64,000 nucleotides of DNA, taken from the NCBI GenBank assembly GCA_964653365.1, contig CAZZER010000004.1, forward strand, positions 8,429 through 72,428, in the 5' to 3' direction. The translations under genes and the position numbers were made by a program. Below the pieces are notes generated by a model. The model did no database searches and had not been told where the DNA came from. It saw only the letters and a list, made by a program, of their open reading frames with translations. Below, piece by piece: positions 11,704-34,720 of the stretch. The stretch is from an uncultured Candidatus Thioglobus sp. Lineage in GTDB: Bacteria > Pseudomonadota > Gammaproteobacteria > PS1 > Pseudothioglobaceae. Position 1 is the stretch's first letter. Every line of letters starts with the position of its first letter.

Positions 11704-12819
11704 ATGATTATTGGCGTACCAAAAGAAATTAAAAACCACGAGTATCGTGTTGGGCTCACACCGCCTAGTGTCAAAGAGTGCGTAAAGCACGGACACAGTG
11801 TATTAGTACAAACTAATGCTGGTAATGGGATTGGTGCAAGCGATTCTGATTATGAATCGGTAGGTGCAACCATTATCGACACTGCTGAAGCTATTTTTGC
11901 TAAGGCTGAGATGATTGTGAAGGTGAAAGAGCCCCAGGCCAATGAAAGAGCAATGCTAAGAGAGGGTCAAATTCTTTATACTTATCTTCATCTTGCTCCA
12001 GACCCAGAACAAACCAAAGACCTGGTTAATAGTGGCGCTATTTGCATCGCTTACGAAACTGTCACTGCTGAAAAGGGCGGCTTGCCTCTACTAGCACCAA
12101 TGTCAAAGGTAGCAGGCAGAATGGCTGTACAAGCAGGTGCGCATTTTCTTGAGCATCCAAATGGTGGCTTGGGCGCACTCTTGGGTGGTGTTCCAGGCGT
12201 TGAGCCTTTAAAAGTTGTTGTAATTGGTGGTGGTGTTGTTGGCTCGCATGCTGCACATATTGCTGTGGGTATGGGTGCAGATGTTTGGGTGTTGGATAAC
12301 AATCCGCAGACATTGGAAAGTCATTGGGAGCAATTTGGCAGAACTACAAACGCTGTCTTTTCAACGCAAAGCTCTATTGAAGAACATGTTACTAGCGCAG
12401 ACCTAGTAATCGGTGGGGTTTTAATTCCGGGCTCAGAAGCACCAAAACTGGTTACAAAAGAGATGATTAGTGCAATGAAGCCGGGTTCTGTTGTGGTTGA
12501 TGTCGCTATTGACCAAGGTGGTTGCTTTGAAACTTCAAAAGCTACAACGCACGCCGATCCAACTTATGTTGTTGACGATGTTGTGCACTACTGTGTGGCT
12601 AATATGCCAGGTGGTGTGCCAAAAACGTCTACTTATGCACTTAACAATGTGACATTACCTTTTGCGCTGAATATAGCCAATAAGGGTGTTAAGCAAGCCC
12701 TACTTGATGATGAGCATTTAAGAGCGGGTTTGAATGTTCATTCTGGAAAAGTAACATGTGAAGAAGTCGCTCACGATTTGGGCTATGAATATTTCGATGC
12801 GCTTGATGCGCTTAATTAA
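11704..12819 (+). CDS. ald: Alanine dehydrogenase
   Basis: MIIGVPKEIKNHEYRVGLTP at the N-terminus and the NAD fold VVVIGGGVVGSHAAHIAVGMGADV. 371 aa. Confidence 0.9.
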   Translation: MIIGVPKEIKNHEYRVGLTPPSVKECVKHGHSVLVQTNAGNGIGASDSDYESVGATIIDTAEAIFAKAEMIVKVKEPQANERAMLREGQILYTYLHLAPDPEQTKDLVNSGAICIAYETVTAEKGGLPLLAPMSKVAGRMAVQAGAHFLEHPNGGLGALLGGVPGVEPLKVVVIGGGVVGSHAAHIAVGMGADVWVLDNNPQTLESHWEQFGRTTNAVFSTQSSIEEHVTSADLVIGGVLIPGSEAPKLVTKEMISAMKPGSVVVDVAIDQGGCFETSKATTHADPTYVVDDVVHYCVANMPGGVPKTSTYALNNVTLPFALNIANKGVKQALLDDEHLRAGLNVHSGKVTCEEVAHDLGYEYFDALDALN

Positions 12820-14620
12820 CTAATTTATAACAGGAGAATCAAAAATGACAAGAATGACCTCAAGTGAGGCCTTTGTAGAAACAATGGTTGCCAATGGTGT
12901 TAAAGACATCTTTGGTATTATGGGCTCTGCCTTTATGGATGCTATGGACATCTTTGAACCGGCAGGCATTCGCCTTATCCCAGTGGTACACGAGCAGGGT
13001 GCTGGTCACATGGCAGACGGCTATGCTCGCGTTAGTGGCAAGCACGGTGTTGTGATTGGCCAAAATGGCCCGGGTATCTCTAATTGTGTAACTGCCATTG
13101 CAGCTGCTTATTGGGCACACTCTCCAGTGGTTATCATTACCCCTGAGGCTGGCACTATGGGCATGGGTCTTGGTGGCTTCCAAGAAGCTAACCAGCTACC
13201 AATGTTCCAAGAGTTTACTAAGTACCAAGGGCACGTTTGTAACCCAATGCGTATGGCTGAGTTTACTGGTCGTTGCTTTGACCGTGCCATGAGTGAAATG
13301 GCGCCAACACAGCTTAACATTCCAAGAGACTACTTCTACGCCGATGGTGAGTTCACTATCCCACAACCAAGAAGAATCGACCGTGGTACTGGTGGTGAAG
13401 AATCTCTTAACGATGCCGTTAACCTCATTGCGCAAGCGCAGTTCCCAGTAATTGTCTCTGGTGGTGGTGTAGTCATGGCCGATGGTGTTGACGAGTGTAA
13501 GGCACTTGCTGAGCGCTTAGGTGCGCCAGTAGTTAACTCTTATCTACATAATGACTCCTTCCCAGCTAGCCATGAACTATGGTGTGGTCCACTCGGTTAC
13601 CAAGGCTCTAAGGCTGGTATGAAGCTAATTGCTCAAGCCGATGTTGTAATCGCCTTAGGTACGCGTTTAGGACCTTTTGGCACATTGCCTCAACATGGTA
13701 TGGATTACTGGCCAAAAGACGCCAAAATCGTACAAATTGACGCCGACCATAAGATGCTTGGTTTGGTTAAATCAATTACTGTTGGTATTTGTGGTGATGC
13801 TAAAGCGGTTGCTGAAGCACTCACTGCCAAACTGGCAACAGCAGATCTTGCTTGTGATGCCAGCAAAGCTGAAAGAGCGGAAAAAATCGCTCAAGAGAAA
13901 GCCGACTGGGAAAAAGAATTGGATGAATGGATCCATGAAACTGACCCATACAGCCTAGACATGATTGAAGACCTTGAAGAGGGTTGGTTACACCCAAGAC
14001 AAGTTTTGCGTGAGCTTGAGAAGGCAATGCCTGAAGATGTGATGGTATCAACTGATATTGGCAACATCAACTCGGTGGCTAACAGCTACTTACGTTTTGA
14101 GAAGCCAAGAAGCTTCTTCGCACCAATGAGCTTTGGTAACTGTGGTTATGCGCTACCAACCATTATCGGTGCTAAAGCAGCAGCCCCTCACCGTCCAGCT
14201 GTCTCATACGCAGGTGATGGCGCTTGGGCCATGAGCATGGTAGAAACCATGACTTGTGTACGTCACGACATTCCTGTTACAGCTGTGGTCTTCCACAACT
14301 GCCATTGGGGTGCTGAGAAGAAGAACCAAGTAGACTTCTACGACAGACGCTTTGTTGCCGCTGAACTAACAGATCAACACTTTGTCAACATTGCTGAATC
14401 AATGGGTGCCGAAGGCATCCGTGTGGACAAACTTGAAGAGGTTGGTCCAGCGCTTAAAAAAGCCATTGACATGCAAATGAACGAAGGCAAAACAACCATC
14501 ATTGAAATCATGTGTACGCGTGAATTGGGTGACCCGTTCCGTAAAGATGCATTGAGCAAACCGGTGCGTTACTTGCCGAAGTACAAAGACTATGGTGTGA
14601 ATCAGCAGCATAGGTAGAAA
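12818..14620 (+). repeat. Copy 1 of a 1803-bp perfect direct repeat (27 nt of 5' leader with RBS, plus xsc, plus 3 nt)
   Basis: Every line I compared is identical to 32918-34720 at a constant offset of 20100. All six-frame ORFs in the two copies have identical translations. The first mismatches are t12817/a32917 and g14621/a34721. Confidence 0.9.
12845..14617 (+). CDS. xsc: Sulfoacetaldehyde acetyltransferase (ThDP-dependent), copy 1
   Basis: 590 aa. ThDP-enzyme layout (acetolactate-synthase-like) with the ThDP motif GDGAWAMSMVETMT...N. Located downstream of tpa-ald. Confidence 0.8.
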   Translation: MTRMTSSEAFVETMVANGVKDIFGIMGSAFMDAMDIFEPAGIRLIPVVHEQGAGHMADGYARVSGKHGVVIGQNGPGISNCVTAIAAAYWAHSPVVIITPEAGTMGMGLGGFQEANQLPMFQEFTKYQGHVCNPMRMAEFTGRCFDRAMSEMAPTQLNIPRDYFYADGEFTIPQPRRIDRGTGGEESLNDAVNLIAQAQFPVIVSGGGVVMADGVDECKALAERLGAPVVNSYLHNDSFPASHELWCGPLGYQGSKAGMKLIAQADVVIALGTRLGPFGTLPQHGMDYWPKDAKIVQIDADHKMLGLVKSITVGICGDAKAVAEALTAKLATADLACDASKAERAEKIAQEKADWEKELDEWIHETDPYSLDMIEDLEEGWLHPRQVLRELEKAMPEDVMVSTDIGNINSVANSYLRFEKPRSFFAPMSFGNCGYALPTIIGAKAAAPHRPAVSYAGDGAWAMSMVETMTCVRHDIPVTAVVFHNCHWGAEKKNQVDFYDRRFVAAELTDQHFVNIAESMGAEGIRVDKLEEVGPALKKAIDMQMNEGKTTIIEIMCTRELGDPFRKDALSKPVRYLPKYKDYGVNQQHR

Positions 14621-14671
14621 GTAACTCGAAGCACTTTTTAGCTCTTTAAGAGTTGTGTGGCTTTCACAATT

Positions 14672-14697
14672 AAGGCAGGTTTTATCCTGCCTTTTTT
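14672..14697 (+). terminator. Rho-independent terminator after xsc copy 1
   Basis: aaggcagg-ttttat-cctgcctt followed by tttt. Confidence 0.75.
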
Positions 14698-14726
14698 GTA
14701 CATATTTTCTTTGTTTGCAAACAAGG

Positions 14727-14779
14727 TTGACACACTAATGGGAAACATGATAAGATGCTCGAAACTCATATATATGAGT
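14727..14779 (+). promoter_or_regulatory. P(sat-apr): TTGACA(14727-14732)-18 nt-TAAGAT(14751-14756), followed 7 nt later by the 16-bp palindromic operator ACTCATATATATGAGT (14764-14779)
   Basis: Read directly. The architecture is nearly identical to 26877-26927 and, on the minus strand, to 25952-25894. Confidence 0.65.
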
Positions 14780-15006: not shown

Positions 15007-16215
15007 ATGTCTAATTTAGTGCCTGCGCATGGCGGCCTTGGTTTAAAGCCTTTAGGTCTTAATGATTATGAATTAACATCAGAGTTATCTAGAGCACAAG
15101 ACTTGCCATCTATTCCTTGCTCATCAAGAGAATTTGGCGATATTATTATGATGGGTATTGGTGGTTTTACTCCCCTTGATGGCTTTATGAATGAAGCAGA
15201 CTGGAAAAATGTCTGCTCTAATATGACAATGTCTGACGGCCTCTTTTGGCCAATCCCTATAACCTTGTCAACGAACGACGAAAGTATTCAAGAGGGTGAT
15301 GACATTGCCTTAACATTTGGCGACAGTGGAGATGTAATCGCTACGATGACAGTCACTCAGAAATACTGTATTGATAAAGATTTTGAGTGTCAATCAGTCT
15401 ACAAAACTACCGACCAAGAGCACCCTGGCGTGTCTATGGTGATGGCTCAAGGTAAATACAATCTTGCAGGCTCTATTAAAGTTTTGTCAGACGGGCATTT
15501 TCCCCAGACTTACGGTAGGCTTTATATGACCCCCAGTGAGACACGAACCTATTTTGAAGAAAAAGGTTGGTCAAGTGTTGCTGCCTTCCAAACGCGAAAC
15601 CCTATGCATCGTTCGCACGAATATCTGGCAAAAATTGCGATAGAAATCTGTGATGGAGTGATGATACATTCAACTTTAGGTGAGCTTAAGCCTGGGGACA
15701 TCCCAGCAGAAGTTCGCTCAAACGCGATAAGTGCTCTTATTGAGAATTACTTTACCGACAATAGTGTGTTGCAATCTGGCTATCCACTAGACATGCGATA
15801 TGCAGGGCCACGAGAGGCACTCTTGCATGCTCTTTTCCGCCAAAATTATGGCTGCTCACATTTGATTGTTGGGCGTGACCATGCTGGCGTTGGTGACTAC
15901 TACGGACCTTTTGATGCTCACAATATTTTTGATGAAATTCCAAAAGATGCATTAATTACTCAACCCCTTAAGATTGATTGGACATTCTGGTGTAATAAGT
16001 GCGCAAGTATGGCCAGTATGAAGACTTGCCCACATAGTTCTGATGATAGGTTGTTATTATCAGGTACTAAACTAAGACATATGCTAAGCGAGAATCTTGA
16101 TGTTCCTGAGAATTTTTCTAGAGCAGAGGTCTTAACCATATTGCGCGACTATTATGCGAAGCTAAAAGACGATGAAAAAGTCAAGGTGGAGTTAAAAGGC
16201 CACTCGGCGCAATAA
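15007..16215 (+). CDS. sat: Sulfate adenylyltransferase (ATP sulfurylase, Sat type)
   Basis: Motifs [13 protein letters not shown] and [12 protein letters not shown]. The track starts at TTG 15001; ATG 15007 ([10 protein letters not shown]) is more likely. Confidence 0.9.
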
Positions 16216-16273
16216 AAATGTAATAGCGATTTTTTAACGAAATTTATTATTTATTTAAGGAGAGATAAAAGAG

Positions 16274-17098
16274 ATGATTTCAACCAACCGAATTGCTGAA
16301 TTGTCGGCAGAGATACCTTACGAAGTGATGCAATACTATGTTGCAATCATGATTGCGCTTGTTGTTATCGCAACAATTGTTGATGTTACTCATAAAAAAA
16401 GCGCTAAATATTTCTTTGAGAACGCTAAAAAGGCTCAAAAAAATGCAACAAGAAAGGTTCCCAGTGGAGAGAAGGCAAGCATTGCAATAAAAACCGCCAT
16501 AGAGGATGTTGCTCTTTCAGGTGAATTTTGCAATACTAGGCGTAGAATAGCCCATTTGCTTACTATGTATGGTTTTATTCTCTTTGTGCTTTCAACGGCT
16601 ATCATGGTCTTTTGTGCAGAATCCGGTGAATCCTATACTATCCTCCCACAGTTGTGGCATTTAGGTGCTGGCATGCTGGCATTAGGTAGTTGGTGGTTTT
16701 GGTTATTTATTCGAGTCGACGTTGCTGCTGAGGGTAACAAGTGGTACAACATTGAACCGATGGATTTATTTAGCCTGTCATTAATGGCTACATCGGCATT
16801 TGCCCTAATTTGGTCCCTTAGCGGTGGTGGCGTTGGCCTCTTGTTTGTTTTGTTTGTGGCTGCCAGCACTATTCTATTTGGTGGTGTTCTATGGTCAAAG
16901 TTTGCACATATGTTTTTCAAACCTGCAGCAGCGTTTAACAAACGCATGATGAAGGCTGATGGTTCTATGGAAAATCTACCAGAACCAGCTGACAGATCAA
17001 ACCCTGAAACTCGTGATAGGCACTCAATGCTATTGCTTAAAGATGCGCCGATGGATATGGGCTTAGGTATTAAGCGTGAAGCGCCACGCCATTATTAA
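16274..17098 (+). CDS. aprM: Polytopic membrane protein, AprM-like putative membrane anchor and electron-transfer partner of APS reductase
   Basis: 274 aa with several long hydrophobic segments. It lies immediately upstream of aprBA, as aprM does in sulfur-oxidiser-type apr loci. I could not verify any diagnostic motif by eye. Confidence 0.5.
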   Translation: MISTNRIAELSAEIPYEVMQYYVAIMIALVVIATIVDVTHKKSAKYFFENAKKAQKNATRKVPSGEKASIAIKTAIEDVALSGEFCNTRRRIAHLLTMYGFILFVLSTAIMVFCAESGESYTILPQLWHLGAGMLALGSWWFWLFIRVDVAAEGNKWYNIEPMDLFSLSLMATSAFALIWSLSGGGVGLLFVLFVAASTILFGGVLWSKFAHMFFKPAAAFNKRMMKADGSMENLPEPADRSNPETRDRHSMLLLKDAPMDMGLGIKREAPRHY

Positions 17099-17118
17099 TT
17101 AGATTAAGGAGAAAGATT

Positions 17119-17589
17119 ATGCCAACTTTTGTATATATGACTCGTTGTGATGGCTGTGGACATTGTGTTGATATTTGTCCTTCGGATATTATGCACATTG
17201 ATAAGAAGTACCGTCGTGCAGTAAACATAGAACCCAATATGTGTTGGGAGTGTTATTCTTGTGTCAAAGCTTGCCCACAAAATGCAATTGATGTGCGCGG
17301 TTATGCCGATTTTGCACCGCTAGGACACAGTGTTAGGGTGTTAAGAGAAGAGGAAAAAGGCACCATTTCATGGAAGATTAAATTCCGTGACGGACGTGAA
17401 AAGAACTTTGTTTCCCCAATAACAACCAAACCTTGGGGCGAAAATATTCCAAAACTTAGTGAGTTGCCAATGCCCACTGAAGACGAATTTAAGAACCAAT
17501 TACTTTGTTATGAGCCTGATGCGCTAAACCTCGAAGAGGGTCTTCATACAATGAAAAATCTAACACTCAAAGAGGGAGTTTATTACTAA
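17119..17589 (+). CDS. aprB: Adenylylsulfate (APS) reductase beta subunit
   Basis: Two ferredoxin-type clusters, CDGCGHCVDICP and CWECYSCVKACP, plus a long C-terminal tail. Translationally coupled to aprA (TAATG). Confidence 0.85.
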   Translation: MPTFVYMTRCDGCGHCVDICPSDIMHIDKKYRRAVNIEPNMCWECYSCVKACPQNAIDVRGYADFAPLGHSVRVLREEEKGTISWKIKFRDGREKNFVSPITTKPWGENIPKLSELPMPTEDEFKNQLLCYEPDALNLEEGLHTMKNLTLKEGVYY

Positions 17590-19442
17590 TGGCAAAAGTT
17601 AAAACAATCTACGAAAATTGCGATGTGCTGGTTGTCGGTGGTGGCATGGGCGGCACGGGCGCGGCTTATGAGGCAAGATATTGGGGACGGGACATGAAAA
17701 TTGTTGTTGCCGAAAAGGCTAACATCGACCGCTCTGGTGCTGTTGCACAAGGCTTATATGCAATTAACTGCTACATGGGAACCCAGTGGCAAGAAAACAA
17801 TCCAGAGGATCATGTTCGCTATGCGAGAAATGATCTAATGGGCATGGTTCGAGAAGATCTCGCTTATGATATGGCTCGCCATGTTGATTCAGCTGTGCAT
17901 AAATTTGAAGAGTGGGGCTTACCATTGATGCGCAACGAAGAAACTGGTCGTTATCAAAGAGAGGGTAAGTGGCAAATTATGATCCATGGTGAGAGTTACA
18001 AGCCAATTGTAGCGGAGGCGGCGAAAAAATCTGCTGACAAAGTCTACAACCGCATAATGGTCACTCATTTGTTAATGGATGAAAATCAAGAAAATCGTGT
18101 TGCTGGCGCAGTTGGCTTTAATTGTCGCACGGGCAATTATCACGTTTTTAGAGCAAAAGCGGTAGTAGTTTCTGCCGGTGGTGCGTCTCACATTTTCAAA
18201 CCTCGTTCCGTAGGTGAAGGCATGGGTCGAACTTGGTATGCACCGTGGAGCAGTGGCTCAGCGTATGCGTTATCGATTGAGGCTGGCGCAAAAATGACAC
18301 AAATGGAAAACCGTATTGTATTGGCCAGATTCAAAGACGGTTATGGGCCAGTTGGTGCCTACTTTCTACACCTTAAAACATATACTCAAAACGGTTATGG
18401 TGAAGAATACGAGTCCAAATGGTACGAACACACAAAGGAAATTGTTGGCGAATATATAGATCACACACCAACGCCAACTTGTTTGCGTAATCATGCTTTT
18501 ATTGAGGAAGTAAAAGCGGGTCGTGGCCCTATTCACATGGTCACTATGGAAGCTTTCCAAGACCCTCATCTTGAAGAAGTGGGATGGGAAAACTTTCTTG
18601 GTATGACTGTTGGTCAAGCGGTAGTTTGGGCTTCGCAAAATATCGATCCTAAATACATCAATCCTGAATTAACAACCTCCGAACCTTATGTGATGGGTTC
18701 ACATGCAACTTGTTCTGGCGCTTGGTGTTCCGGACCAGAGGATCTCTCTCCGCCAGAATATTTCTGGGGCTACAACCGAATGATGACGGTGGATGGTTTG
18801 TTCGGCGCTGGAGACGCTATTGGTGGTACAGCGCATGCGTTTTCATCGGGTTCTTTTACTGAGGGTCGTTTGGCTGCAAAAGCTGCAGTTAATTACATTC
18901 TCGATGGTAAGGGTGAGGATATTGATGTATCAAAGAAAAAAATTGCTGAACTAAAAGAGGCGATATATAAACCTCTCGAAAATTACACAGTTGGACGCAA
19001 TGAAATTGTCGGTGGTACGGTTTCCCCAAGCTATCTTTTGCCAATCCAAGGGCTTCAACGCCTTGAAAAAATTATGGATGAATACTGTGGTGGCATTGGC
19101 GTTAATTATATGACCAATGATAAACTGCTTAACATGGGCTTAGAAAAACTAGCGGTCCTTGAAGAAGATTTAGACCACATCGGTGCTGAGGATACTCACC
19201 AATTGATGAGAGCGTGGGAATTGAAGCATCGTCACCGCACATCTGAATGTGTCATGCAACATACCTTATTCCGCAAAGAGACGCGCTGGCCAGGGTATTA
19301 CTATCGTGGGGACGCACTCAAACTGGATGACGAGAATTGGCATGTACTAACTGTTTCAAGACGTAACCCTGAGACAGGGGAGTACACGATGGAGAAAGCA
19401 CCGGTGTATCACTTGGTTGATGATGAACAGGGGGCTGGCTAA
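17589..19442 (+). CDS. aprA: Adenylylsulfate (APS) reductase alpha subunit (flavoprotein)
   Basis: 617 aa. FAD fold DVLVVGGGMGGTGAAYEA. Fumarate-reductase-like flavoprotein layout, paired with aprB and sat. Confidence 0.85.
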   Translation: MAKVKTIYENCDVLVVGGGMGGTGAAYEARYWGRDMKIVVAEKANIDRSGAVAQGLYAINCYMGTQWQENNPEDHVRYARNDLMGMVREDLAYDMARHVDSAVHKFEEWGLPLMRNEETGRYQREGKWQIMIHGESYKPIVAEAAKKSADKVYNRIMVTHLLMDENQENRVAGAVGFNCRTGNYHVFRAKAVVVSAGGASHIFKPRSVGEGMGRTWYAPWSSGSAYALSIEAGAKMTQMENRIVLARFKDGYGPVGAYFLHLKTYTQNGYGEEYESKWYEHTKEIVGEYIDHTPTPTCLRNHAFIEEVKAGRGPIHMVTMEAFQDPHLEEVGWENFLGMTVGQAVVWASQNIDPKYINPELTTSEPYVMGSHATCSGAWCSGPEDLSPPEYFWGYNRMMTVDGLFGAGDAIGGTAHAFSSGSFTEGRLAAKAAVNYILDGKGEDIDVSKKKIAELKEAIYKPLENYTVGRNEIVGGTVSPSYLLPIQGLQRLEKIMDEYCGGIGVNYMTNDKLLNMGLEKLAVLEEDLDHIGAEDTHQLMRAWELKHRHRTSECVMQHTLFRKETRWPGYYYRGDALKLDDENWHVLTVSRRNPETGEYTMEKAPVYHLVDDEQGAG

Positions 19443-19524: not shown

Positions 19525-19875
19525 ATGAACTTATTAAATAAAACAGACGATGAGATTCTTGAGATTGCTAACCCAATGTGGCGCAATCTTATTAAGAATT
19601 CGAATAATCAAAACTACATCGGTTTCACCAAGAATTTTTCCAAAGAAATGTTGCGGGGAGCCAACGAAATCGAAGTTGGAAAACAATGGGCGAGAAACGA
19701 GTTAACCAAGAACTTATCCAAAGACATGGAATTACTTGGCATTCTTAGGCGAGGCGATCATGTCAGTATTTTATACAAGCAAACAAATAAGAAAATCCCT
19801 GGGGAATACTTGGGTCGTCTTGTGCTAGGTGTGGAGGATGGTATGGTTAGAATTTTTGGTGCAACGATATTTTAG
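19525..19875 (+). CDS. Hypothetical protein (116 aa)
   Basis: Clean ORF with an ATG start after the aprA terminator. No motif recognised. Confidence 0.45.
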   Translation: MNLLNKTDDEILEIANPMWRNLIKNSNNQNYIGFTKNFSKEMLRGANEIEVGKQWARNELTKNLSKDMELLGILRRGDHVSILYKQTNKKIPGEYLGRLVLGVEDGMVRIFGATIF

Positions 19876-19882
19876 CCATGTT

Positions 19883-20377
19883 ATGAAAGAAATTATTCAA
19901 GACGATAAATTTGTCGAATTAAACTACAAAATTACAGATCAAAAAACGGGTGAAATAATTGCTCAAGTGAATGTACCTTTGGGTTATGTTCAAGGCGATA
20001 AATCGCCATTATTGCCTCAAGTCATCCAGGCGCTTGAAGGAAAGTCGGTCGGTGATAAAATAGATGTGCCAATAGATTGCACTGAAATATTTGGCCCATG
20101 GGATAAGGATTTAACCTTTACAGACGACCTTGAAAACGTGCCAGAGGAGTATCGCTCGATTGGTACTAAAATCACGATGGAAAATAACGAGGGTGAGCCT
20201 AAAGATTTTTTTGTAACCAAGATTGAAAATAACAAGCTTACAGTAGATGGCAACAATCCTTTGTGCGGTAGGGAAGTGATTTTTTCCTTAAAGATTATTT
20301 CAATTCGCGATGCAACCGAAGCAGAGATTGAATCTGGTTGTGCCGTAGAGGTTGATCCAAACGAAACACGACATTAA
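19883..20377 (+). CDS. FKBP-type peptidyl-prolyl cis-trans isomerase, SlyD/SlpA-like
   Basis: From the internal ATG at 19883: MKEIIQDDKFVELNYKITD...; IF-domain-like insert; LTVDGNNPLCGREVIFSLKIISIRDATEAEIE matches the SlyD-family C-terminal motif (hPLAGk.L.F.v.v..vR.At.eE). No His-rich tail. Confidence 0.7.
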   Translation: MKEIIQDDKFVELNYKITDQKTGEIIAQVNVPLGYVQGDKSPLLPQVIQALEGKSVGDKIDVPIDCTEIFGPWDKDLTFTDDLENVPEEYRSIGTKITMENNEGEPKDFFVTKIENNKLTVDGNNPLCGREVIFSLKIISIRDATEAEIESGCAVEVDPNETRH

Positions 20378-20396
20378 TATCATTAATGCAATTATT

Positions 20397-20744
20397 ATGC
20401 CAATAGACTTCTCCCTTTTAGAAATAAACCTAGCAAAGAACCTTGTTAATGATCGATGGCGTGACGTAAAAATTGAGCTCGCTGATGTTGAAGTCTCAAG
20501 ATCATCGAAAAGCGAATCTTTGCCTTATCCAGCCCTTGTATGGGAGGCCTCAAAGTGCACGTTCGTTGTTATCAAGGTCGACGAATCCGCCTATAAGTGT
20601 ATTTTTTATTATTTAGGTACACAACGTTTTGATACTGGGGTCAATGAGTATGAAGATTTACACGATTGTGTTCTTTCGATCATGAAGCTTCAAGCCAACT
20701 TTTTGTTGACAAAAAACAACGATATCAGCGTTTCAAACACTTAA
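20397..20744 (+). CDS. Hypothetical protein (115 aa from ATG 20397)
   Basis: ORF only; no motif recognised. The track start at 20352 overlaps the upstream gene. Confidence 0.4.
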   Translation: MPIDFSLLEINLAKNLVNDRWRDVKIELADVEVSRSSKSESLPYPALVWEASKCTFVVIKVDESAYKCIFYYLGTQRFDTGVNEYEDLHDCVLSIMKLQANFLLTKNNDISVSNT

Positions 20745-20753
20745 AGAAATAAG

Positions 20754-21242
20754 CTAAGCAGAAAGGTCGTTAAAGACATGCGACTCAAACATCCAATTTT
20801 CTTTGTTGTCGATTGTTAGCGTTAAACATCTGGGCCCACCCTGGTTGCGAACACCACCTGAAGCTCCAGGGTTGATTATCCAAGGTTTGGTGTCATCGTC
20901 TATTGTTTGCACATGAGTGTGCCCATATACAACAGCCTTTGCGTCTGGATAAGTTCTTCTTAGTGAGTCATGGCACGGTTGGTAATGACCATGCTTATGC
21001 CCGTGCTCTATTACCAGGGTGCCACCAGGTAAATCAAGGCTCTCAACTTCTTTAAGGAAGAGCATGTGTGGATCATTGTTTCCTTGAACTGCAATAAGCT
21101 TTTGTCTTGGTGTAAGGTATTGCAGGATGGATTCATCAATAATATCTCCAGCATGAACAGCAAAATCACAGTTGTTAATCAACTCGACTATTTGCGGGTG
21201 GATTTCACCATGTGAGTCTGAAAGAATTGCAATAGTTACCAT
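20754..21242 (-). CDS. YfcE/MJ0936-family metallophosphoesterase
   Basis: Motifs DSHG, HAGD, GNND, EHGH and GHTH occur in canonical order. Lies 22 nt downstream of the soeC-like gene on the same strand. Confidence 0.8.
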   Translation of the reverse strand: MVTIAILSDSHGEIHPQIVELINNCDFAVHAGDIIDESILQYLTPRQKLIAVQGNNDPHMLFLKEVESLDLPGGTLVIEHGHKHGHYQPCHDSLRRTYPDAKAVVYGHTHVQTIDDDTKPWIINPGASGGVRNQGGPRCLTLTIDNKENWMFESHVFNDLSA

Positions 21243-25893: not shown

Positions 25894-25952
25894 ACTCATA
25901 TATATGAGTACATTCGGTGTTAATTTTACTTGGTTGTAAGTCTGCTTGGCAA
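25894..25952 (-). promoter_or_regulatory. P(soe): reading the minus strand, TTGCCA(25952-25947)-18 nt-TAAAAT(25928-25923), followed 13 nt later by ACTCATATATATGAGT (25909-25894)
   Basis: Read directly. Same palindrome and same 18-nt spacer as the other two promoters. Confidence 0.6.
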
Positions 25953-25989: not shown

Positions 25990-26709
25990 TTATTCTGGCA
26001 CACCAATAGTGGTTGTGTAACTGAACATATCAGCACGACCAGTTGTTATACGATATTCAACCAACCCTTTGCCTTTTGCATAAGAATGACGGTTTAGGAT
26101 AACAACAGGGTCTCCCTCATTAATATCAAGAATAGTAGCAGTTTTATTATCAGCAATGCTTGCAGTTAGTATTTCTTTAGATGAGGTAACATGGGTTCCA
26201 AATTGTTTGGATACCAATGCATATAACAAGTCTGGGATATGAACGCTAGATTTCTGCAAACCCTCAACTGTCTCAGCGATCCACCAAGATTTTTCAATTA
26301 TGATCGGGTGCTTTTTATCGATATATCCCATTCTTTCTAGGTAAATCACTTCGTCACCATGCTCAATTTCAAGTTGATGGCTGATTTCAGCGGTAGCAGA
26401 AATCTTTTTTCTAACCGGAGTTGTTTTATAGATGCGGATTGACGAGCCAGTGCTACTACCATAACTGAAAAAGTTAAACATACTATTGTCAAAGCCATAA
26501 TCCGAAACATAGGTGCCTTTACCATGATGGCGATAGAGTAATTTGTCTTGCTCAAGAATATCAATGGCCTTTCTGACTGTCCCAACACTGACGCCGAGTA
26601 ATTTTGACAGCTGTGATTCAGAGGGCACAAGGTCACCAACCATTAATTCACCACTAGTAATTCTATCCTTAATATGGTCAACTACAGTTTCGTAAAGTTT
26701 CTTTTTCAA
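25990..26709 (-). CDS. GntR-family transcriptional regulator, HutC subfamily (wHTH plus UTRA effector domain)
   Basis: 239 aa. N-terminal HTH ESQLSKLLGVSVGTVRKAIDILEQDKLLYRHHGKGTYV. The C-terminal ~160 aa have UTRA-like length and pattern. Confidence 0.8.
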   Translation of the reverse strand: MKKKLYETVVDHIKDRITSGELMVGDLVPSESQLSKLLGVSVGTVRKAIDILEQDKLLYRHHGKGTYVSDYGFDNSMFNFFSYGSSTGSSIRIYKTTPVRKKISATAEISHQLEIEHGDEVIYLERMGYIDKKHPIIIEKSWWIAETVEGLQKSSVHIPDLLYALVSKQFGTHVTSSKEILTASIADNKTATILDINEGDPVVILNRHSYAKGKGLVEYRITTGRADMFSYTTTIGVPE

Positions 26710-26876: not shown

Positions 26877-26927
26877 TTGACAACCTGTAAGTTGCCATGG
26901 TAAGATGCATCACTCATATATATGAGT
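26877..26927 (+). promoter_or_regulatory. P(tct): TTGACA(26877-26882)-18 nt-TAAGAT(26901-26906), followed 5 nt later by ACTCATATATATGAGT (26912-26927)
   Basis: Read directly. It lies in the divergent region between the GntR gene and tctA. Confidence 0.65.
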
Positions 26928-28963: not shown

Positions 28964-29923
28964 ATGAAAATTAAACAATTAACAAAAGTTGCATTACTTG
29001 CAGCGGCATCAATGATGGCGTTTCAAGCTTCTGCAGCATACCCTGATGGTAAGCCAATCGGTACTATGGTTGCTTATGGTCCGGGCGGTGCGACAGACTT
29101 CCAAGCACGTATTGCAACTTTAGCAGCGGGCAAAGAGGCGTTTATTGGCTCGCCAATTTACATCGTTAATAAGCCGGGTGCTGGTGGTCGTACTGGTTGG
29201 AACTGGTTCGCTAGTGAGGCGCCTAAAGATGGCTTTATGCTTGCTGCATACAATGTGCCGCATTTCATTGCCCAATCAATCGTATTTGACACTGCATACA
29301 ATATCGATACTTTGGAGCCATTAGGTAACTGGGGTGCAGATCCTGCGGTATTAATCGTGGGTAAAGATAGCCCTTTCAATACAGTTGAAGAGTTACTTGC
29401 ACACGCTGATGCAAATCCTGGTGCTGTAACAATCAGTGGTGCTGGTAAATTTGTTGGTCACCATATTGCATACTTGCAGTTTGCAAAAGCCTCCGGCAAA
29501 GACATGACATACATCCCAGCTAAGGGCGGTGTTGATGCTCTTAGAATGGTTAAAGCGGGTGAAGTATCAGCTGGATTTAACAACTTGTCTGACTCTGCAA
29601 GAAGTGCTGCTGATCTTAAGATCTTAGCTGTTGCAGACCTTACAAGACATGAATACCTTCCAGATGTTCGCACATTAATGGAAGCTGGTGTTGATGTAGA
29701 TGATTCAAGTGTTAACTTCCGTGGATTGATGGTTCCTGCTGGAACACCTCAAGACGTTATCGATTACCTAGCAAGCAAAGTGCCTGCTATGTTTAACGAT
29801 AAGAAGACACAGGGCAAGATGAAGTCGACTAACTCTCCTTCTCGTATCATGAGTAGAGATGAAGTCGTTTCCATGTGGTCAGAAAGACAAGCTTACTTGA
29901 CTGAGCTACTAGCTGGTCTTTAA
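28964..29923 (+). CDS. tctC: TTT periplasmic substrate-binding protein, TctC/Bug family
   Basis: 319 aa. Signal peptide MKIKQLTKVALLAAASMMAFQASA. Bug-family pattern VNKPGAGGRTGWN. Confidence 0.8.
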   Translation: MKIKQLTKVALLAAASMMAFQASAAYPDGKPIGTMVAYGPGGATDFQARIATLAAGKEAFIGSPIYIVNKPGAGGRTGWNWFASEAPKDGFMLAAYNVPHFIAQSIVFDTAYNIDTLEPLGNWGADPAVLIVGKDSPFNTVEELLAHADANPGAVTISGAGKFVGHHIAYLQFAKASGKDMTYIPAKGGVDALRMVKAGEVSAGFNNLSDSARSAADLKILAVADLTRHEYLPDVRTLMEAGVDVDDSSVNFRGLMVPAGTPQDVIDYLASKVPAMFNDKKTQGKMKSTNSPSRIMSRDEVVSMWSERQAYLTELLAGL

Positions 29924-29945: not shown

Positions 29946-29974
29946 GACTAGGGCGTCGTTTAGGCGCCTTAGTC
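29946..29974 (+). promoter_or_regulatory. Intercistronic hairpin between tctC and the fusion gene (no T-run)
   Basis: gactagggcg-tcgtttagg-cgccttagtc forms a 10-bp stem with one G-U pair. Confidence 0.35.
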
Positions 29975-30007
29975 AACTCAATGTATATTTTCTTTTAGAT
30001 TACAATA

Positions 30008-32914
30008 ATGAAATCCAAAACCGATTCCTTGATTGATGAATTAATCAGTCGAGCCAGAATAGCTCAATCCATAATTAATGATTTTTCTCAGGAACAAATC
30101 GATGAAATGCTCCTAGCTGTTGCATGGGAGGTTATCAAACCTGAAAACAATCACCCTTTGTCCGAAATGGCTGTAGAGCACACAGGCTGTGGCAAGGTAG
30201 AAGACAAAATGCGAAAGAATCAGCGCAAAACAATGGGTTTGCTTCGCGATTTAAAAGATGTTAATACTGTTGGTATTATTAATGAAGATACTGATAATGG
30301 AATAATAGAGATAGCAAAACCGGTTGGCGTTATTGGTGCGATAGCACCCTCAACCAATCCAATTGCAACACCACTCAATAAAACCATTAATGCACTCAAA
30401 TGCCGCAACGCAATTATTCTTGCACCTTCACCAAAAGGTGCTGTAGTTTGTCAAAAAGTGGTCTCACTTATGCAAGATGCTTTACGTAGAGTTGGCGCGC
30501 CTGTTAATTTAGTGCAAGCGCTACCTATGCCAATAAGTAAAGAAAATACCAATGAATTAACCGAGAAAGTTGACTTGGTGGTTGCAACCGGCTCACAAAA
30601 CAATATTAAAAGGGCGTTGGCCACAGGAACACCAACCTTGGGCGTGGGTGTTGGCAATGTACCTTCTATCATTGATGATAGTGCAGACTTAGCTGATGCT
30701 GCAGCAAAAATAAAAGCATCAAAAACTTTTGATAATGCCACCAGCTGCTCATCAGAAAATAGCGTTGTTATTCTTGATTCGATATATCAAAAAACATTAG
30801 ATGCACTTTCTGCCGAGGGTGGTGTATTGCTTAACGAGAAAGAAAAAACATCTCTTTGTGAGCAAATGTGGGACGAAAATCACGTTATTAATCGCAATAT
30901 CATTGCCAAGAGATCGGCTGAAATTGCTCGATTAGTTGGTTTTGAGAAACAAAAATTTGAATCTTCAGAGTTTCTAATGGTCGAAGAAACAGGAATCGGC
31001 AAAGATTATCCTTTTTCTATGGAAAAGCTTTCACCCATATTAACAGTCTATCGTGCACAGGATTTTGACGATGCTGTTCGCCTGACTACCAAAATTCTTA
31101 AAAACCAAGGCCAAGGACACTCGTGCAGCATCCACAGTAAAACGGATGCTAATATTGACAGGCTTGGTCTTGAATTGCCTGTATGCCGTGTCATCGTTAA
31201 TCAGGCACACTGTTTTGCTACTGGTGGTAATTTCGATAATGCCTTGCCATTTTCACTGTCAATGGGTTGTGGCACCTGGGGGAATAATGTTTCAGGTGAA
31301 AACTTAAACTACAAACAATACCTCAACATAACCAAAATTGTAAGAACTATTAAGCCTAATGAGCCAACTGAAGAAGAGCTTTTTGGTGAGTACTGGGAAA
31401 AACACCTGCTACCAAATTCAAAGACAATTACAAACTTTGTAGATAAGTTTGCATTAAGCACACCAGAAAAAACTTATCTGATAGAAGCTGACACTGACAA
31501 CCATATTAGCTACAAACAACTCAAAGACGATATTCTAAAACTGGGATCTTACTTTAACCAAAACTCGATTAAACCTGGAGATAAAGTGGGTTTTTTATTG
31601 GACAACAGTTACCCAACAACGCTCTTATTTTTAGGGGCAATGTACCATGGAGTTATCGTTGTTCCAGTTAACATTGTTGCAGGCAAAACGCAGATTCAGT
31701 ACACAATAGAGCATTCTGGCTGTAAGAAATTGTTCGTCTCTGCCGACTATATAGAGAAGTTTAGCGATATTCTTACCGAGGTCAGTGCTGAAACAATAAA
31801 GTACGAAACTCTAAATGATCTTGGTAGCTTAGTAGCCTCAAATAAAGCTCCGGATTTAACTTCTGAAACACCTGGCGTATTAATATATACCTCGGGCACT
31901 ACTGGAGTCCCTAAAGGAGTGCTTCTTAATCATGGCAATGTTTTAGCAGGCGGGGAAAATACTGCTATCGCGCACCAAATTGATAGCGACGATATTTCTT
32001 TATGTGTACTACCACTTTATCATATTAATGCCGAAATGGTTTCTGTTTCATCCGCTTTGGTTAGCAACAGTTGTGTGGTAATGATGAGCAAGTTTAGTGT
32101 TTCCAATTTTTGGCAAACCATTGAACAGTATCGATGCACGTGGTTTAGTGTTGTGCCAACGATTATCAACTATCTAATTGGTGATGATTGTGATGTCTCT
32201 AAATTGGACTTGAGTTGCGTCCGCTTTGGCCGCTCTGCCTCTGCACCTCTTTCGCCGGAAGTTCATAAAAACTTTGAGAAAATTTTCAATGTTCATCTTG
32301 TTGAGACAATGGGGTTGACTGAAACTTCTGCGCAAATATTGTCCAATCCACTTGGTAATCGCAAGCACGGCTCTGCAGGCATTGCATACGGCAATGAAGT
32401 GCGAGTTGTTAATGATGCAGGTGAATACGTGAAACCGGGCGAGATTGGTGAGTTGGTCATCAAAGGCAACAACGTTATGCATGGTTACTATAATAATGAA
32501 GAGGCTACAAAATCAGCATTTAATGATGATGGATATTTACTCACTGGAGATCTTGGCCGTGAAGACGATGAGGGCTTCTTTTATATTACCGGCAGGACAA
32601 AAGAGTTGATTATTAAAGGTGGTGAAAATATTTCTCCACGGGAGATTGATGATGCGCTCTATCAGCACAATGCCATCCTTGAAGCATGTGCTTTTGGCGT
32701 GCCTGATGACAATTACGGAGAAGAGATTGCAGCCTTTGTATTGCTAAAAGACAATTGCCAAACCAATGAAGAAGAGCTTAAAGAGTTATGCATTTCATTG
32801 CTGGGTAATTTTAAAACACCTAGTCGAATAGTATTTGTTGACGAGCCACTTCCAAAAGGGCCGTCCGGCAAGATTCAGCGCTTAAAAATTGCCGAAAGTT
32901 ATTCACAAAACTAA
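30008..32914 (+). CDS. Bifunctional fusion: N-terminal CoA-acylating aldehyde dehydrogenase (SauS-like) and C-terminal AMP-forming acyl-CoA ligase (SauT-like)
   Basis: aa 1-~445 match EutE/PduP/AdhE-N-type motifs: KPVGVIGAIAPSTNPIATPLNK, GVGVGNVPSIIDDSADL, and the catalytic-Cys context KTFDNATSCSSENSV. aa ~470-968 match adenylate-forming ligase motifs: LIYTSGTTGVPKGVLLNH, TGDLGREDDEGFFYITGRTKELIIKGGENISPREID, PKGPSGKIQR. It is a single uninterrupted 968-codon ORF. Confidence 0.7.
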   Translation: MKSKTDSLIDELISRARIAQSIINDFSQEQIDEMLLAVAWEVIKPENNHPLSEMAVEHTGCGKVEDKMRKNQRKTMGLLRDLKDVNTVGIINEDTDNGIIEIAKPVGVIGAIAPSTNPIATPLNKTINALKCRNAIILAPSPKGAVVCQKVVSLMQDALRRVGAPVNLVQALPMPISKENTNELTEKVDLVVATGSQNNIKRALATGTPTLGVGVGNVPSIIDDSADLADAAAKIKASKTFDNATSCSSENSVVILDSIYQKTLDALSAEGGVLLNEKEKTSLCEQMWDENHVINRNIIAKRSAEIARLVGFEKQKFESSEFLMVEETGIGKDYPFSMEKLSPILTVYRAQDFDDAVRLTTKILKNQGQGHSCSIHSKTDANIDRLGLELPVCRVIVNQAHCFATGGNFDNALPFSLSMGCGTWGNNVSGENLNYKQYLNITKIVRTIKPNEPTEEELFGEYWEKHLLPNSKTITNFVDKFALSTPEKTYLIEADTDNHISYKQLKDDILKLGSYFNQNSIKPGDKVGFLLDNSYPTTLLFLGAMYHGVIVVPVNIVAGKTQIQYTIEHSGCKKLFVSADYIEKFSDILTEVSAETIKYETLNDLGSLVASNKAPDLTSETPGVLIYTSGTTGVPKGVLLNHGNVLAGGENTAIAHQIDSDDISLCVLPLYHINAEMVSVSSALVSNSCVVMMSKFSVSNFWQTIEQYRCTWFSVVPTIINYLIGDDCDVSKLDLSCVRFGRSASAPLSPEVHKNFEKIFNVHLVETMGLTETSAQILSNPLGNRKHGSAGIAYGNEVRVVNDAGEYVKPGEIGELVIKGNNVMHGYYNNEEATKSAFNDDGYLLTGDLGREDDEGFFYITGRTKELIIKGGENISPREIDDALYQHNAILEACAFGVPDDNYGEEIAAFVLLKDNCQTNEEELKELCISLLGNFKTPSRIVFVDEPLPKGPSGKIQRLKIAESYSQN

Positions 32915-32917
32915 ACA

Positions 32918-34720
32918 AACTAATTTATAACAGGAGAATCAAAAATGACAAGAATGACCTCAAGTGAGGCCTTTGTAGAAACAATGGTTGCCAATGGTGT
33001 TAAAGACATCTTTGGTATTATGGGCTCTGCCTTTATGGATGCTATGGACATCTTTGAACCGGCAGGCATTCGCCTTATCCCAGTGGTACACGAGCAGGGT
33101 GCTGGTCACATGGCAGACGGCTATGCTCGCGTTAGTGGCAAGCACGGTGTTGTGATTGGCCAAAATGGCCCGGGTATCTCTAATTGTGTAACTGCCATTG
33201 CAGCTGCTTATTGGGCACACTCTCCAGTGGTTATCATTACCCCTGAGGCTGGCACTATGGGCATGGGTCTTGGTGGCTTCCAAGAAGCTAACCAGCTACC
33301 AATGTTCCAAGAGTTTACTAAGTACCAAGGGCACGTTTGTAACCCAATGCGTATGGCTGAGTTTACTGGTCGTTGCTTTGACCGTGCCATGAGTGAAATG
33401 GCGCCAACACAGCTTAACATTCCAAGAGACTACTTCTACGCCGATGGTGAGTTCACTATCCCACAACCAAGAAGAATCGACCGTGGTACTGGTGGTGAAG
33501 AATCTCTTAACGATGCCGTTAACCTCATTGCGCAAGCGCAGTTCCCAGTAATTGTCTCTGGTGGTGGTGTAGTCATGGCCGATGGTGTTGACGAGTGTAA
33601 GGCACTTGCTGAGCGCTTAGGTGCGCCAGTAGTTAACTCTTATCTACATAATGACTCCTTCCCAGCTAGCCATGAACTATGGTGTGGTCCACTCGGTTAC
33701 CAAGGCTCTAAGGCTGGTATGAAGCTAATTGCTCAAGCCGATGTTGTAATCGCCTTAGGTACGCGTTTAGGACCTTTTGGCACATTGCCTCAACATGGTA
33801 TGGATTACTGGCCAAAAGACGCCAAAATCGTACAAATTGACGCCGACCATAAGATGCTTGGTTTGGTTAAATCAATTACTGTTGGTATTTGTGGTGATGC
33901 TAAAGCGGTTGCTGAAGCACTCACTGCCAAACTGGCAACAGCAGATCTTGCTTGTGATGCCAGCAAAGCTGAAAGAGCGGAAAAAATCGCTCAAGAGAAA
34001 GCCGACTGGGAAAAAGAATTGGATGAATGGATCCATGAAACTGACCCATACAGCCTAGACATGATTGAAGACCTTGAAGAGGGTTGGTTACACCCAAGAC
34101 AAGTTTTGCGTGAGCTTGAGAAGGCAATGCCTGAAGATGTGATGGTATCAACTGATATTGGCAACATCAACTCGGTGGCTAACAGCTACTTACGTTTTGA
34201 GAAGCCAAGAAGCTTCTTCGCACCAATGAGCTTTGGTAACTGTGGTTATGCGCTACCAACCATTATCGGTGCTAAAGCAGCAGCCCCTCACCGTCCAGCT
34301 GTCTCATACGCAGGTGATGGCGCTTGGGCCATGAGCATGGTAGAAACCATGACTTGTGTACGTCACGACATTCCTGTTACAGCTGTGGTCTTCCACAACT
34401 GCCATTGGGGTGCTGAGAAGAAGAACCAAGTAGACTTCTACGACAGACGCTTTGTTGCCGCTGAACTAACAGATCAACACTTTGTCAACATTGCTGAATC
34501 AATGGGTGCCGAAGGCATCCGTGTGGACAAACTTGAAGAGGTTGGTCCAGCGCTTAAAAAAGCCATTGACATGCAAATGAACGAAGGCAAAACAACCATC
34601 ATTGAAATCATGTGTACGCGTGAATTGGGTGACCCGTTCCGTAAAGATGCATTGAGCAAACCGGTGCGTTACTTGCCGAAGTACAAAGACTATGGTGTGA
34701 ATCAGCAGCATAGGTAGAAA
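32918..34720 (+). repeat. Copy 2 of the 1803-bp perfect direct repeat
   Basis: See copy 1. Offset is exactly 20100 nt. Confidence 0.9.
32945..34717 (+). CDS. xsc: Sulfoacetaldehyde acetyltransferase (ThDP-dependent), copy 2
   Basis: The 590-aa translation is identical to copy 1. It is followed by pta, the classical xsc-pta pairing. Confidence 0.8.
   Translation: MTRMTSSEAFVETMVANGVKDIFGIMGSAFMDAMDIFEPAGIRLIPVVHEQGAGHMADGYARVSGKHGVVIGQNGPGISNCVTAIAAAYWAHSPVVIITPEAGTMGMGLGGFQEANQLPMFQEFTKYQGHVCNPMRMAEFTGRCFDRAMSEMAPTQLNIPRDYFYADGEFTIPQPRRIDRGTGGEESLNDAVNLIAQAQFPVIVSGGGVVMADGVDECKALAERLGAPVVNSYLHNDSFPASHELWCGPLGYQGSKAGMKLIAQADVVIALGTRLGPFGTLPQHGMDYWPKDAKIVQIDADHKMLGLVKSITVGICGDAKAVAEALTAKLATADLACDASKAERAEKIAQEKADWEKELDEWIHETDPYSLDMIEDLEEGWLHPRQVLRELEKAMPEDVMVSTDIGNINSVANSYLRFEKPRSFFAPMSFGNCGYALPTIIGAKAAAPHRPAVSYAGDGAWAMSMVETMTCVRHDIPVTAVVFHNCHWGAEKKNQVDFYDRRFVAAELTDQHFVNIAESMGAEGIRVDKLEEVGPALKKAIDMQMNEGKTTIIEIMCTRELGDPFRKDALSKPVRYLPKYKDYGVNQQHR

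Follow-up and report, generated by a model that had tools for sequence, protein, structure and literature searches.

Why would a bacterial chromosome carry the same gene twice, letter for letter, on either side of 20 kb of other genes? The question is raised by a stretch of 64,000 nucleotides (hereafter, the window) from an uncultured Candidatus Thioglobus sp. (GenBank assembly GCA_964653365.1, contig CAZZER010000004.1, positions 8,429 to 72,428 of the forward strand), in which xsc occurs in two identical copies. Taurine and sulfoacetate are both broken down by way of sulfoacetaldehyde, which the gene product, Xsc, cleaves to give acetyl phosphate and sulfite; genes that oxidise this sulfite lie between the copies. 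From left to right, the locus reads tauABC, a dimethylglycine dehydrogenase (DMGDH)-like gene, and the divergent tauR; tpa-ald-xsc1 with a terminator; sat-aprMBA; soeABC on the minus strand; gntR; tctABC-sauST-xsc2; a hairpin; and pta. The remainder of the window consists of housekeeping genes (glyA, nrdR, radA, the pheA-hisC-tyrA-aroA genes, and lepB), and the window is therefore chromosomal DNA, of an uncultured marine heterotroph of the Thioglobaceae (SUP05/Arctic96BD-19-type). The answer that we consider likely is an old duplication of a unit comprising the ald tail, xsc, and a terminator, since homogenised by gene conversion, which would leave one xsc for each of two regulons.

An exact direct repeat and its counterpart in a second species

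Compared base by base, the two intervals, which lie 20100 nt apart, agreed over 1803 bp without a mismatch, as the initial annotation had reported, and no N bases were present in the window. In each copy, a leader of 27 nt that contains an AGGAG ribosome-binding site is followed by the xsc open reading frame (ORF) of 590 codons and by 3 nt past its stop codon:

12818..14620, plus strand: repeat copy 1, leader, xsc1 ORF at 12845-14617, and 3 nt; identical to 32918-34720
32918..34720, plus strand: repeat copy 2, leader, xsc2 ORF at 32945-34717, and 3 nt; identical to copy 1

Copy 1 begins inside the ald stop codon (12817-12819), of which it takes in the final two bases, and copy 2 begins 3 nt past the sauST stop codon (32912-32914); these boundaries are as originally described. 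Outside them, the 300 bp flanking each copy showed 26–29% identity in ungapped comparison, which is the random level. Both copies of Xsc matched the NCBIfam model TIGR03457 with 1036.5 bits (cutoff 676.4) over amino acids 3–580 of 590. A perfect match of 1803 bp cannot have arisen by chance. The window was scanned with NCBIfam and Pfam models and for tRNAs and inverted repeats, and no tRNA, transposase or insertion sequence (IS), integrase, or terminal inverted repeat was found, in line with the initial annotation, which had reported that no transposase, integrase, or terminal inverted repeats flank the copies. An Rfam scan of the window returned nothing in the 20-kb block, the sole match being a cobalamin riboswitch elsewhere.

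The genomes nearest to the window are Thioglobaceae metagenome-assembled genomes (MAGs). The JGI contig Ga0206681_10000041 (hereafter, G41; loci L106 and L107) represents a different species that has the same gene order as the window from tauC to creC, and it is collinear with the window throughout the 20 kb that separate the copies. G41 contains a perfect direct repeat of its own, 1927 bp in length with copies 20251 nt apart, which consists of a 32-nt leader, xsc, and 122 nt downstream. Sister contigs of the G41 species break 90–125 nt into xsc; therefore, the G41 repeat is real too. Between the window and G41, xsc differs at 242 of 1773 sites (13.6%, corresponding to 86.4% identity), 200 of which are third-codon positions, and the number of differences between copies is 0 within the window and 0 within G41. 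The xsc copies are thus old duplicates, their layout being present in at least one other species; it is because this second species has the same layout that the duplication must be old. Comparison of the window with G41 showed synonymous sites to be saturated in block and flank genes alike (proportion of synonymous differences, pS, 0.57–0.82), and the overall and third-position GC contents (GC and GC3) of the block genes (0.33–0.44) overlap those of the flanks (0.32–0.40), which together mean that the block has co-diverged with the chromosome. The initial annotation had suggested comparing the composition of the block with that of its flanks; GC and GC3 do not differ, and no foreign block is seen. 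It had also read the zero divergence as either a very recent duplication or ongoing gene conversion. The latter is supported by our results, and the former is not, given a second species with the same layout at 13.6% divergence. Relatives sharing the layout with diverged copies had been named as an argument against recent insertion; G41 does share the layout, with copies that are homogenised within each genome rather than diverged.

Identity within genomes combined with 13.6% difference between them is the signature expected of concerted evolution. The paralogs are closer to each other than to their orthologs, the duplication predates the species split, and polymorphisms are common to the paralogs. 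The last of these observations comes from five samples in which both copies of one scaffold were readable. In all five, the copies are identical save for the boundary base: at window position 12819, base 2 of the repeat, A and G both occur in the population, with G turning the ald stop codon of copy 1, and of that copy only, from TAA into TAG and leaving those strains with a repeat that is 2 nt shorter. At index 1787 of the repeat (16 nt from its right end, close enough to be phased by k-mers to the unique flanks), both copies carry A in sample ERZ23498795 and both carry G in the four other paired samples. At index 1718 (85 nt from the end), the A variant stands beside the sat-side flank in some samples and beside the pta-side flank in others. 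Polymorphism common to both copies is what ongoing conversion predicts, and this signal rests on few sites in short-read data.

The junctions of the repeat suggest how the second copy came about. ACAAACTAA represents the last two codons and the stop codon of G41 ald, and the G41 repeat begins there. The same sequence follows sauST in the window, G41, and a further locus, L189, and lengthens G41 SauST to 971 aa. In copy 2 of the window, the 3 nt before the repeat (ACA) and its first 6 nt together form ACAAACTAA (TAA-ACA-AACTAA). A left junction common to the window and G41 within 3 nt argues for one ancestral event, in which the unit would have been taken from an ald-xsc context. On the right, the extra 122 nt of G41 ends in a terminator hairpin and ...TTTTTCATGT, followed by AAACT... 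ahead of pta. The motif TTTC[A/G][T/G]GTAAACT precedes pta in every layout, whichever gene lies upstream (xsc, sauST, or a soeA remnant), and was seen in the window (34815-34847) and in L011, L015, L105, L107, L124, L131, L187, and L189; it may serve pta as a promoter or in regulation. The corresponding tails in the window are as follows:

14621..14699, plus strand: 'h' element, a diverged remnant of the ancestral repeat tail, with an intrinsic terminator hairpin (14672-14693) and a T-run
34721..34847, plus strand: xsc2-pta spacer with an 'h' element, a hairpin (34783-34809) and a T-run, then the pta-proximal motif (..TGTAAACT..)

The copy 1 tail matches the hairpin of the 122-nt G41 tail (local alignment score 45), and the copy 2 tail matches its first 40 nt (score 36); neither score was reached in any of 2000 shuffles. 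The copy 1 hairpin folds at -18.1 kcal/mol (z = -4.2), and the copy 2 spacer folds at -19.8 kcal/mol. Direct alignment of the two window tails was not significant, their homology being visible only through G41 and L011. The duplicated unit therefore originally ran from the last ald codons to the terminator ahead of pta, approximately 1.93 kb, and the decay of the tails is evidence from within the window itself for an apparently old duplication.

L011, a MAG that falls in the same clade as the window in both flank trees, carries ald, a single xsc, the same tail (score 98), a C-terminal fragment of soeC, an N-terminal fragment of soeA, and pta-etfQO. The soeC and soeA fragments occupy L011 11917-12911, between xsc and pta, and soeB is gone, which describes a decaying sulfite dehydrogenase locus. 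It follows that soe genes already separated xsc from pta before the lineages diverged; most of the block appears to have been lost from L011 by deletions other than an xsc-xsc crossover.

Regarding the mechanism, RecA-type conversion between the xsc copies would repeatedly overwrite one with the other and so keep them identical within a genome. The conversion tract would be confined to the leader and ORF in the window lineage, with the tails left to drift, and would extend 122 nt further in the G41 species. Selection for the block presumably offsets loop-out deletion between the repeats, and each regulon would gain its own xsc (TauR with taurine, and GntR with sulfoacetate).

Several points weigh against this account. 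We infer gene conversion from comparative data, and regulation by TauR and GntR is likewise inferred. The full two-copy layout is seen in only two species-level lineages, namely the window and G41/L189, of which L189 was seen without copy 1. The pS of xsc between species (0.525) is the lowest of the neighbourhood, which could be due to codon bias, GC-biased conversion, or interspecies exchange of xsc. Midpoint-rooted trees of the left and right flanks differ on in-clade branching and on the closest outgroup. L011 was considered as a former two-copy genome: the match of its pta-upstream sequence to the repeat tail is not significant, and just a duplicated TTTTT(C/T)ATGT is left, a suggestive but weak trace. 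Finally, bubble-popping or double traversal in short-read de Bruijn assembly could hide copy differences of up to a few percent. 'Perfect' identity is to be read as identical or nearly so, because small bubbles may collapse in such assemblies.

Two candidate marks of conversion were also set aside. In L011 and in the two-copy clade, xsc has the highest GC3 of its neighbourhood, at 0.43–0.44 compared with approximately 0.30–0.40 in tpa and ald; genomes of the PS1 type (described below) do not show this. GC-biased conversion would raise GC3 in this manner, but the elevation over tpa and ald (0.04–0.14 in the two-copy clade) is also found in the single-copy L011 and slightly in the tpa-ald-xsc-pta genomes listed below. 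The other candidate concerned L189, which is approximately 98.3% identical to G41 except in two patches that are 22–35% different, covering tctA-tctB and most of sauST (L189 7500-8750 and 10250-12862). Both patches were imported by recombination from a distant lineage. The one in sauST was considered as a mark of xsc2 being overwritten after import; it ends approximately 46 nt before the repeat and is not diagnostic.

Alternative explanations and the origin of the layout

Five layouts were distinguished among the window and its relatives:

T1 (Ca. Pseudothioglobus singularis PS1, complete genome, and L187): gntR-tctABC-sauST-pta-etfQO without xsc, with tau-xsc elsewhere
T2 (L015, L124, and L131): tpa-ald-xsc-pta-etfQO
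T3 (L011): single xsc, soe remnants, and pta
T4 (window, G41, and L189): two xsc copies around the block
T5 (L062, L121, and L132): tpa-ald-xsc-DUF924-like gene-(about 8 kb)-gntR-tctA...

T2 is the operon that deletion of the block would recreate, with the same flanks. The genomes with this 'empty site' (ald-xsc-pta) are more distant (EtfQO+EtfA+EtfB identity of approximately 74%), and no block-less relative within the clade with a clean ald-xsc-pta was found among the relatives, L011 having soe remnants instead. One reading of these layouts is that the 20-kb module for sulfite oxidation and sulfoacetate is, in wild populations, a RecA-driven, reversible copy-number unit, which loops out to ald-xsc-pta and is regained or amplified through xsc without mobility genes. 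We regard this as unlikely; if true, conversion would keep the repeats perfect, the switch would stay fast, and the cassette would be mobile without mobility genes. As a separate observation, in the relative L134 (16737-17954) an N-terminal piece of gntR (aa 1-79) has come to lie on the plus strand and reads in frame into pta as one ORF of 405 aa; tctABC and sauST are missing, and the whole looks like a rearrangement scar.

It is very unlikely that a genome with one xsc, or with two clearly different ones, was given two identical copies by assembly. All of the data come from short-read metagenome assemblies of several samples by several assemblers, and the 1.8-kb repeat exceeds the insert size, so that the scaffolds must have been resolved through loop traversal. 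Moreover, approximately 5 SNPs were found in xsc, compared with approximately 23 expected from the flank density (10 loci), a deficit that consensus collapse would give. Against this, the both-copy layout was found on 43–74 kb scaffolds from at least 8 marine samples, which are 99.75–99.97% identical to the window and encode its exact Xsc, Pta, and Ald proteins. Counting at least 8 ENA scaffolds and several JGI contigs, the layout was recovered with no N bases, and all four junctions (ald-xsc, xsc-sat, sauST-xsc, and xsc-pta) appeared independently in many assemblies made with different assemblers. JGI contigs break at the repeat, with L198 ending on its final base, L095 and L099 beginning 2 nt inside it, and L200 and L201 ending approximately 120 nt into it, as expected where a true repeat with two ways in and two ways out meets de Bruijn assembly. 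It is implausible that the 20-kb block is a free circle: both of its ends lie in xsc and it has no replication genes; hence, it must sit between two copies. In addition, L011 has soe DNA between xsc and pta on a single contig, assembly kept the diverged window tails apart with no difficulty, the SNP located 16 nt from the right edge of the repeat was phased to both flanks, and a hidden divergence of a few percent would still be far below the approximately 14% between species.

The initial annotation had proposed that a circle carrying xsc together with sat-apr, soe, gntR, tctABC, and sauST was recently integrated by a single crossover (Campbell-type) into tpa-ald-xsc-pta, and that the block may therefore be a gain-and-loss cassette. 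A single crossover would give exactly this topology, the repeat unit is bounded by the ald tail on the left and by the pta-upstream hairpin on the right, and L015, L124, and L131 carry ald-xsc-pta-etfQO with the same flanks. This part of the proposal has held up, and the recent or mobile insertion has not. The same layout and junction occur in a species whose genes are diverged to synonymous saturation, in the block as in the flanks, and no difference in composition sets the block apart. Integrase, rep, IS, and tRNA genes are absent, the block ORFs being metabolic, regulatory, or small. The decay of the window repeat tails needs time, soe pseudogene remnants lie at the same site in L011, and in the PS1-type genomes the gene directly upstream of this pta-etfQO flank is sauST, an arrangement not predicted by the model. 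We therefore consider a recent integration highly improbable. Regarding the older history, the ald tail on the left and the pta-type hairpin on the right of the repeat unit make an ald-xsc-pta ancestor plausible. The layout could have originated in an old single crossover with a circular fragment or in a (tandem) duplication and a later insertion, in either case before the species split. The flank trees were tried as a guide to the ancestral layout and set aside: the left and right trees give different sister groups and leave undecided whether T2 is ancestral or a loop-out product.

Hardly credible either is the idea that xsc was copied beside sauST separately and recently in the window and G41 lineages with no long-term conversion, which draws on the unlike repeat lengths (1803 and 1927 bp) and on cis xsc duplicates in unrelated bacteria (an Azoarcus MAG and Janthinobacterium LB3P112) that mark duplication as recurrent, whereas the lineages have the junction of sauST end, ACAAACTAA, and leader in common within 3 nt, the tails of both window copies share homology with that of the G41 repeat, the 20-kb interval is collinear, and the overwriting of an existing copy by the other would be gene conversion by definition.

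Old duplication followed by conversion would provide a natural example, from a marine lineage that is abundant and uncultured, in which the gene for a downstream enzyme common to two pathways was doubled so that two substrate-specific regulons would each own a copy. Conversion would then have kept the copies identical through speciation, although a crossover between these direct repeats would remove 20 kb of sulfur-oxidation genes. It also calls for caution, as zero divergence does not equal recent insertion, and identical repeats in short-read scaffolds should not be taken at face value.

Gene content and two predicted regulons

The gene calls of the initial annotation were essentially right by NCBIfam and Pfam. 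The genes around and between the xsc copies are listed below.

6258-8729: FAD-dependent oxidoreductase and GcvT-type aminomethyltransferase fusion, 823 aa (dimethylglycine/sarcosine dehydrogenase-like, DMGDH-like), between tauC and tauR
8732..10204, minus strand: tauR, MocR-type (GntR helix-turn-helix (HTH) and aminotransferase fold), divergent from tpa; NCBIfam MocR-like families, best E = 8.5e-109
10318-11679, plus strand: tpa, aminotransferase class III; NCBIfam aminotransferase subfamily match
11704-12819, plus strand: ald, alanine dehydrogenase; NCBIfam TIGR00518, 507 bits (cutoff 392)
15007-16215, plus strand: sat; NCBIfam, 517 bits, above cutoff
16274-17098, plus strand: aprM-like membrane ORF, 274 aa; weak TcuB-type match, no Pfam match
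17119-17589, plus strand: aprB; NCBIfam, 196 bits, above cutoff
17589-19442, plus strand: aprA; NCBIfam, 1015 bits, above cutoff
within 19525..21242, plus strand: three small ORFs (116 aa, FKBP-type peptidyl-prolyl isomerase, and 115 aa); NCBIfam
20754-21242, minus strand: yfcE, YfcE-type phosphodiesterase; NCBIfam
21264-22190, minus strand: soeC, DmsC-type anchor; Pfam DmsC
22206-22898, minus strand: soeB, 4Fe-4S subunit; NCBIfam DMSO-reductase-family match
22908-25841, minus strand: soeA, molybdopterin subunit; NCBIfam DMSO-reductase-family match
25990..26709, minus strand: gntR, HutC subfamily (HTH and UTRA), divergent from tctA; NCBIfam, Pfam GntR and UTRA
26975-28486, plus strand: tctA; Pfam TctA
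28488-28940, plus strand: tctB; Pfam TctB
28964-29923, plus strand: tctC; Pfam TctC
30008..32914, plus strand: sauS-sauT fusion (sauST), 968 aa; NCBIfam NF047625 and acyl-CoA ligase families
34848..35843, plus strand: pta, phosphate acetyltransferase; NCBIfam TIGR00651, 337 bits (cutoff 311)

To the right of pta follow etfQO, etfA, etfB, and creBC (minus strand). The tpa and ald genes constitute the taurine-to-sulfoacetaldehyde part of operon 1 (10318..12819), and sat-aprMBA (15007..19442) the APS route for oxidising sulfite; the 274-aa ORF is called 'aprM' from its position. The NCBIfam DMSO-reductase-family matches of soeABC fall below equivalog cutoffs, and no Soe-specific model was matched in NCBIfam or Pfam; the assignment to a cytoplasmic sulfite dehydrogenase-type complex rests on architecture (molybdopterin and 4Fe-4S subunits and a DmsC anchor) and context. 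The three small ORFs and yfcE are all conserved in G41, and the 116-aa and 115-aa ORFs had no Pfam match. The 823-aa DMGDH-like fusion occupies the same place between tauC and tauR in all relatives.

Sulfoacetate is converted to sulfoacetaldehyde by SauT and SauS and then to acetyl phosphate and sulfite by Xsc, and transporters of the tripartite tricarboxylate transporter (TTT) type for sulfoacetate accompany sauS, sauT, and xsc in alpha- and gammaproteobacteria (PMC10413351). The window's tctABC, a tripartite tricarboxylate-type transporter, probably serves sulfoacetate uptake in the manner of SauXYZ. In Cupriavidus necator, SauS and SauT are separate enzymes (PMC10413351). Amino acids 6–465 of the window's sauST product match the SauS equivalog NF047625 (705.9 bits, cutoff 600), and amino acids 472–967 match generic AMP-forming acyl-CoA ligase families below specific cutoffs, in libraries without a SauT-specific model; the SauT assignment of the ligase half draws on its fusion to SauS and on context and is putative. 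A SauS-SauT fusion of approximately 968 aa occurs family-wide, in hundreds of Thioglobaceae sequences, including that of Ca. Pseudothioglobus singularis PS1.

The 16-bp palindrome ACTCATATATATGAGT occurs in three perfect copies in the window, compared with 0 expected, in the following settings:

14727..14779, plus strand: promoter-like site TTGACA-18-TAAGAT with TG, then ACTCATATATATGAGT at 14764-14779, upstream of sat
25894..25909: second ACTCATATATATGAGT, downstream of a promoter-like site at 25952-25923 (minus strand) facing soeA
26877..26927, plus strand: promoter-like site TTGACA-18-TAAGAT with TG and a third ACTCATATATATGAGT at 26912-26927, upstream of tctA

All three lie 7–13 nt downstream of a promoter-like -10 element, ahead of sat, soeA, and tctA, and a scan of the window found none ahead of tpa. 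The sat-side palindrome is in the same place in G41 with 1 mismatch and also stands ahead of sat in L189, the soeA-side palindrome has a perfect copy in the same place in G41 and L189, and the palindrome in the gntR-tctA spacer is kept in PS1, L187, L186, L132, and L121. With ACTCATATATATGAGT as its putative operator, the HutC-type regulator is probably the common repressor of tctABC-sauST-xsc2(-pta), sat-aprMBA, and soeABC.

Both xsc genes have a terminator hairpin after them. Copy 1 begins its ORF 25 nt past ald with no promoter-like site between them, and its terminator closes the operon divergent from tauR; copy 2 lies in the operon divergent from gntR. This anatomy supports the earlier suggestion of two regulons, with copy 1 in a predicted TauR unit and copy 2 in a predicted GntR unit. 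The position of tauR next to tpa is kept in all relatives. In L010 and L197 (sample ERZ23498657), tauR was called at 423 aa, compared with 490 aa, and may be a truncated regulator variant. In the regulon predicted for these heterotrophic SUP05 relatives, a HutC-type regulator with a 16-bp operator would tie the uptake and cleavage of sulfoacetate to the oxidation of sulfite by way of sat-apr and soe, which bears on energy gain from organosulfonates in the ocean.

Elsewhere in the window, the cobalamin riboswitch (57184-57247, minus strand) matched Rfam RF00174 with 32.1 bits, slightly more than the gathering score. It is situated upstream of a gene for a TonB-dependent receptor (55322-57079) and near a corrinoid adenosyltransferase gene (54553-55143).

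Comparison with known systems

Concerted evolution by RecA-dependent conversion has its textbook case in tufA and tufB of Salmonella and E. coli and is also known from rRNA operons. As in tufA/tufB, the paralogous xsc copies are (near-)identical and the orthologs diverged, identity stops sharply at the tract edge, polymorphisms are shared, and mobile machinery is absent. Unlike tufA/tufB, which lie far apart and inverted, the xsc copies are direct repeats 20 kb apart, between which a crossover would delete a useful block. They also sit in two substrate-specific catabolic operons, and conversion is deduced here from comparative data.

The locus also resembles the known Xsc-dependent pathways for C2 sulfonates (Tpa, Ald, Xsc, and Pta for taurine; SauT, SauS, and Xsc for sulfoacetate in Cupriavidus necator H16; PMC10413351), with the same enzymes (Xsc, the SauS equivalog, an AMP-forming ligase, and Pta) and a TTT transporter adjoining sauS and sauT, as known for SauXYZ homologues. 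It differs from the Cupriavidus necator H16 pathway in that SauS and SauT are fused, the GntR regulator is of the HutC type, xsc is present twice, and sat-aprMBA and soeABC lie between the copies and share the putative operator. We found no paper on xsc duplication or on sulfoacetate genes in Thioglobaceae.

As in Campbell-type elements and islands, direct repeats flank a block, and recombination between them would restore an operon found in relatives. In contrast to such elements, there is no integrase, tRNA att site, replication gene, or composition signal, the block is as old as its flanks, and the repeat is a whole 1.8-kb gene.

Pairs of xsc in cis are also found in Azoarcus sp. MAG DYFV01000062 (L037/L048; 8.7 kb apart and 97.8% identical over approximately 1.94 kb) and in Janthinobacterium sp. 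LB3P112 (L084/L088; 19.7 kb apart and 94.0% identical over approximately 1.94 kb). Like the window pair, these are on the same strand, with one copy followed by pta, but the copies are not identical and their other neighbours differ. Duplication of xsc for separate pathways is therefore recurrent. Overall, the process proposed for the window is ordinary concerted evolution, and its setting is less usual, in that the direct repeats bracket useful genes and have survived speciation.

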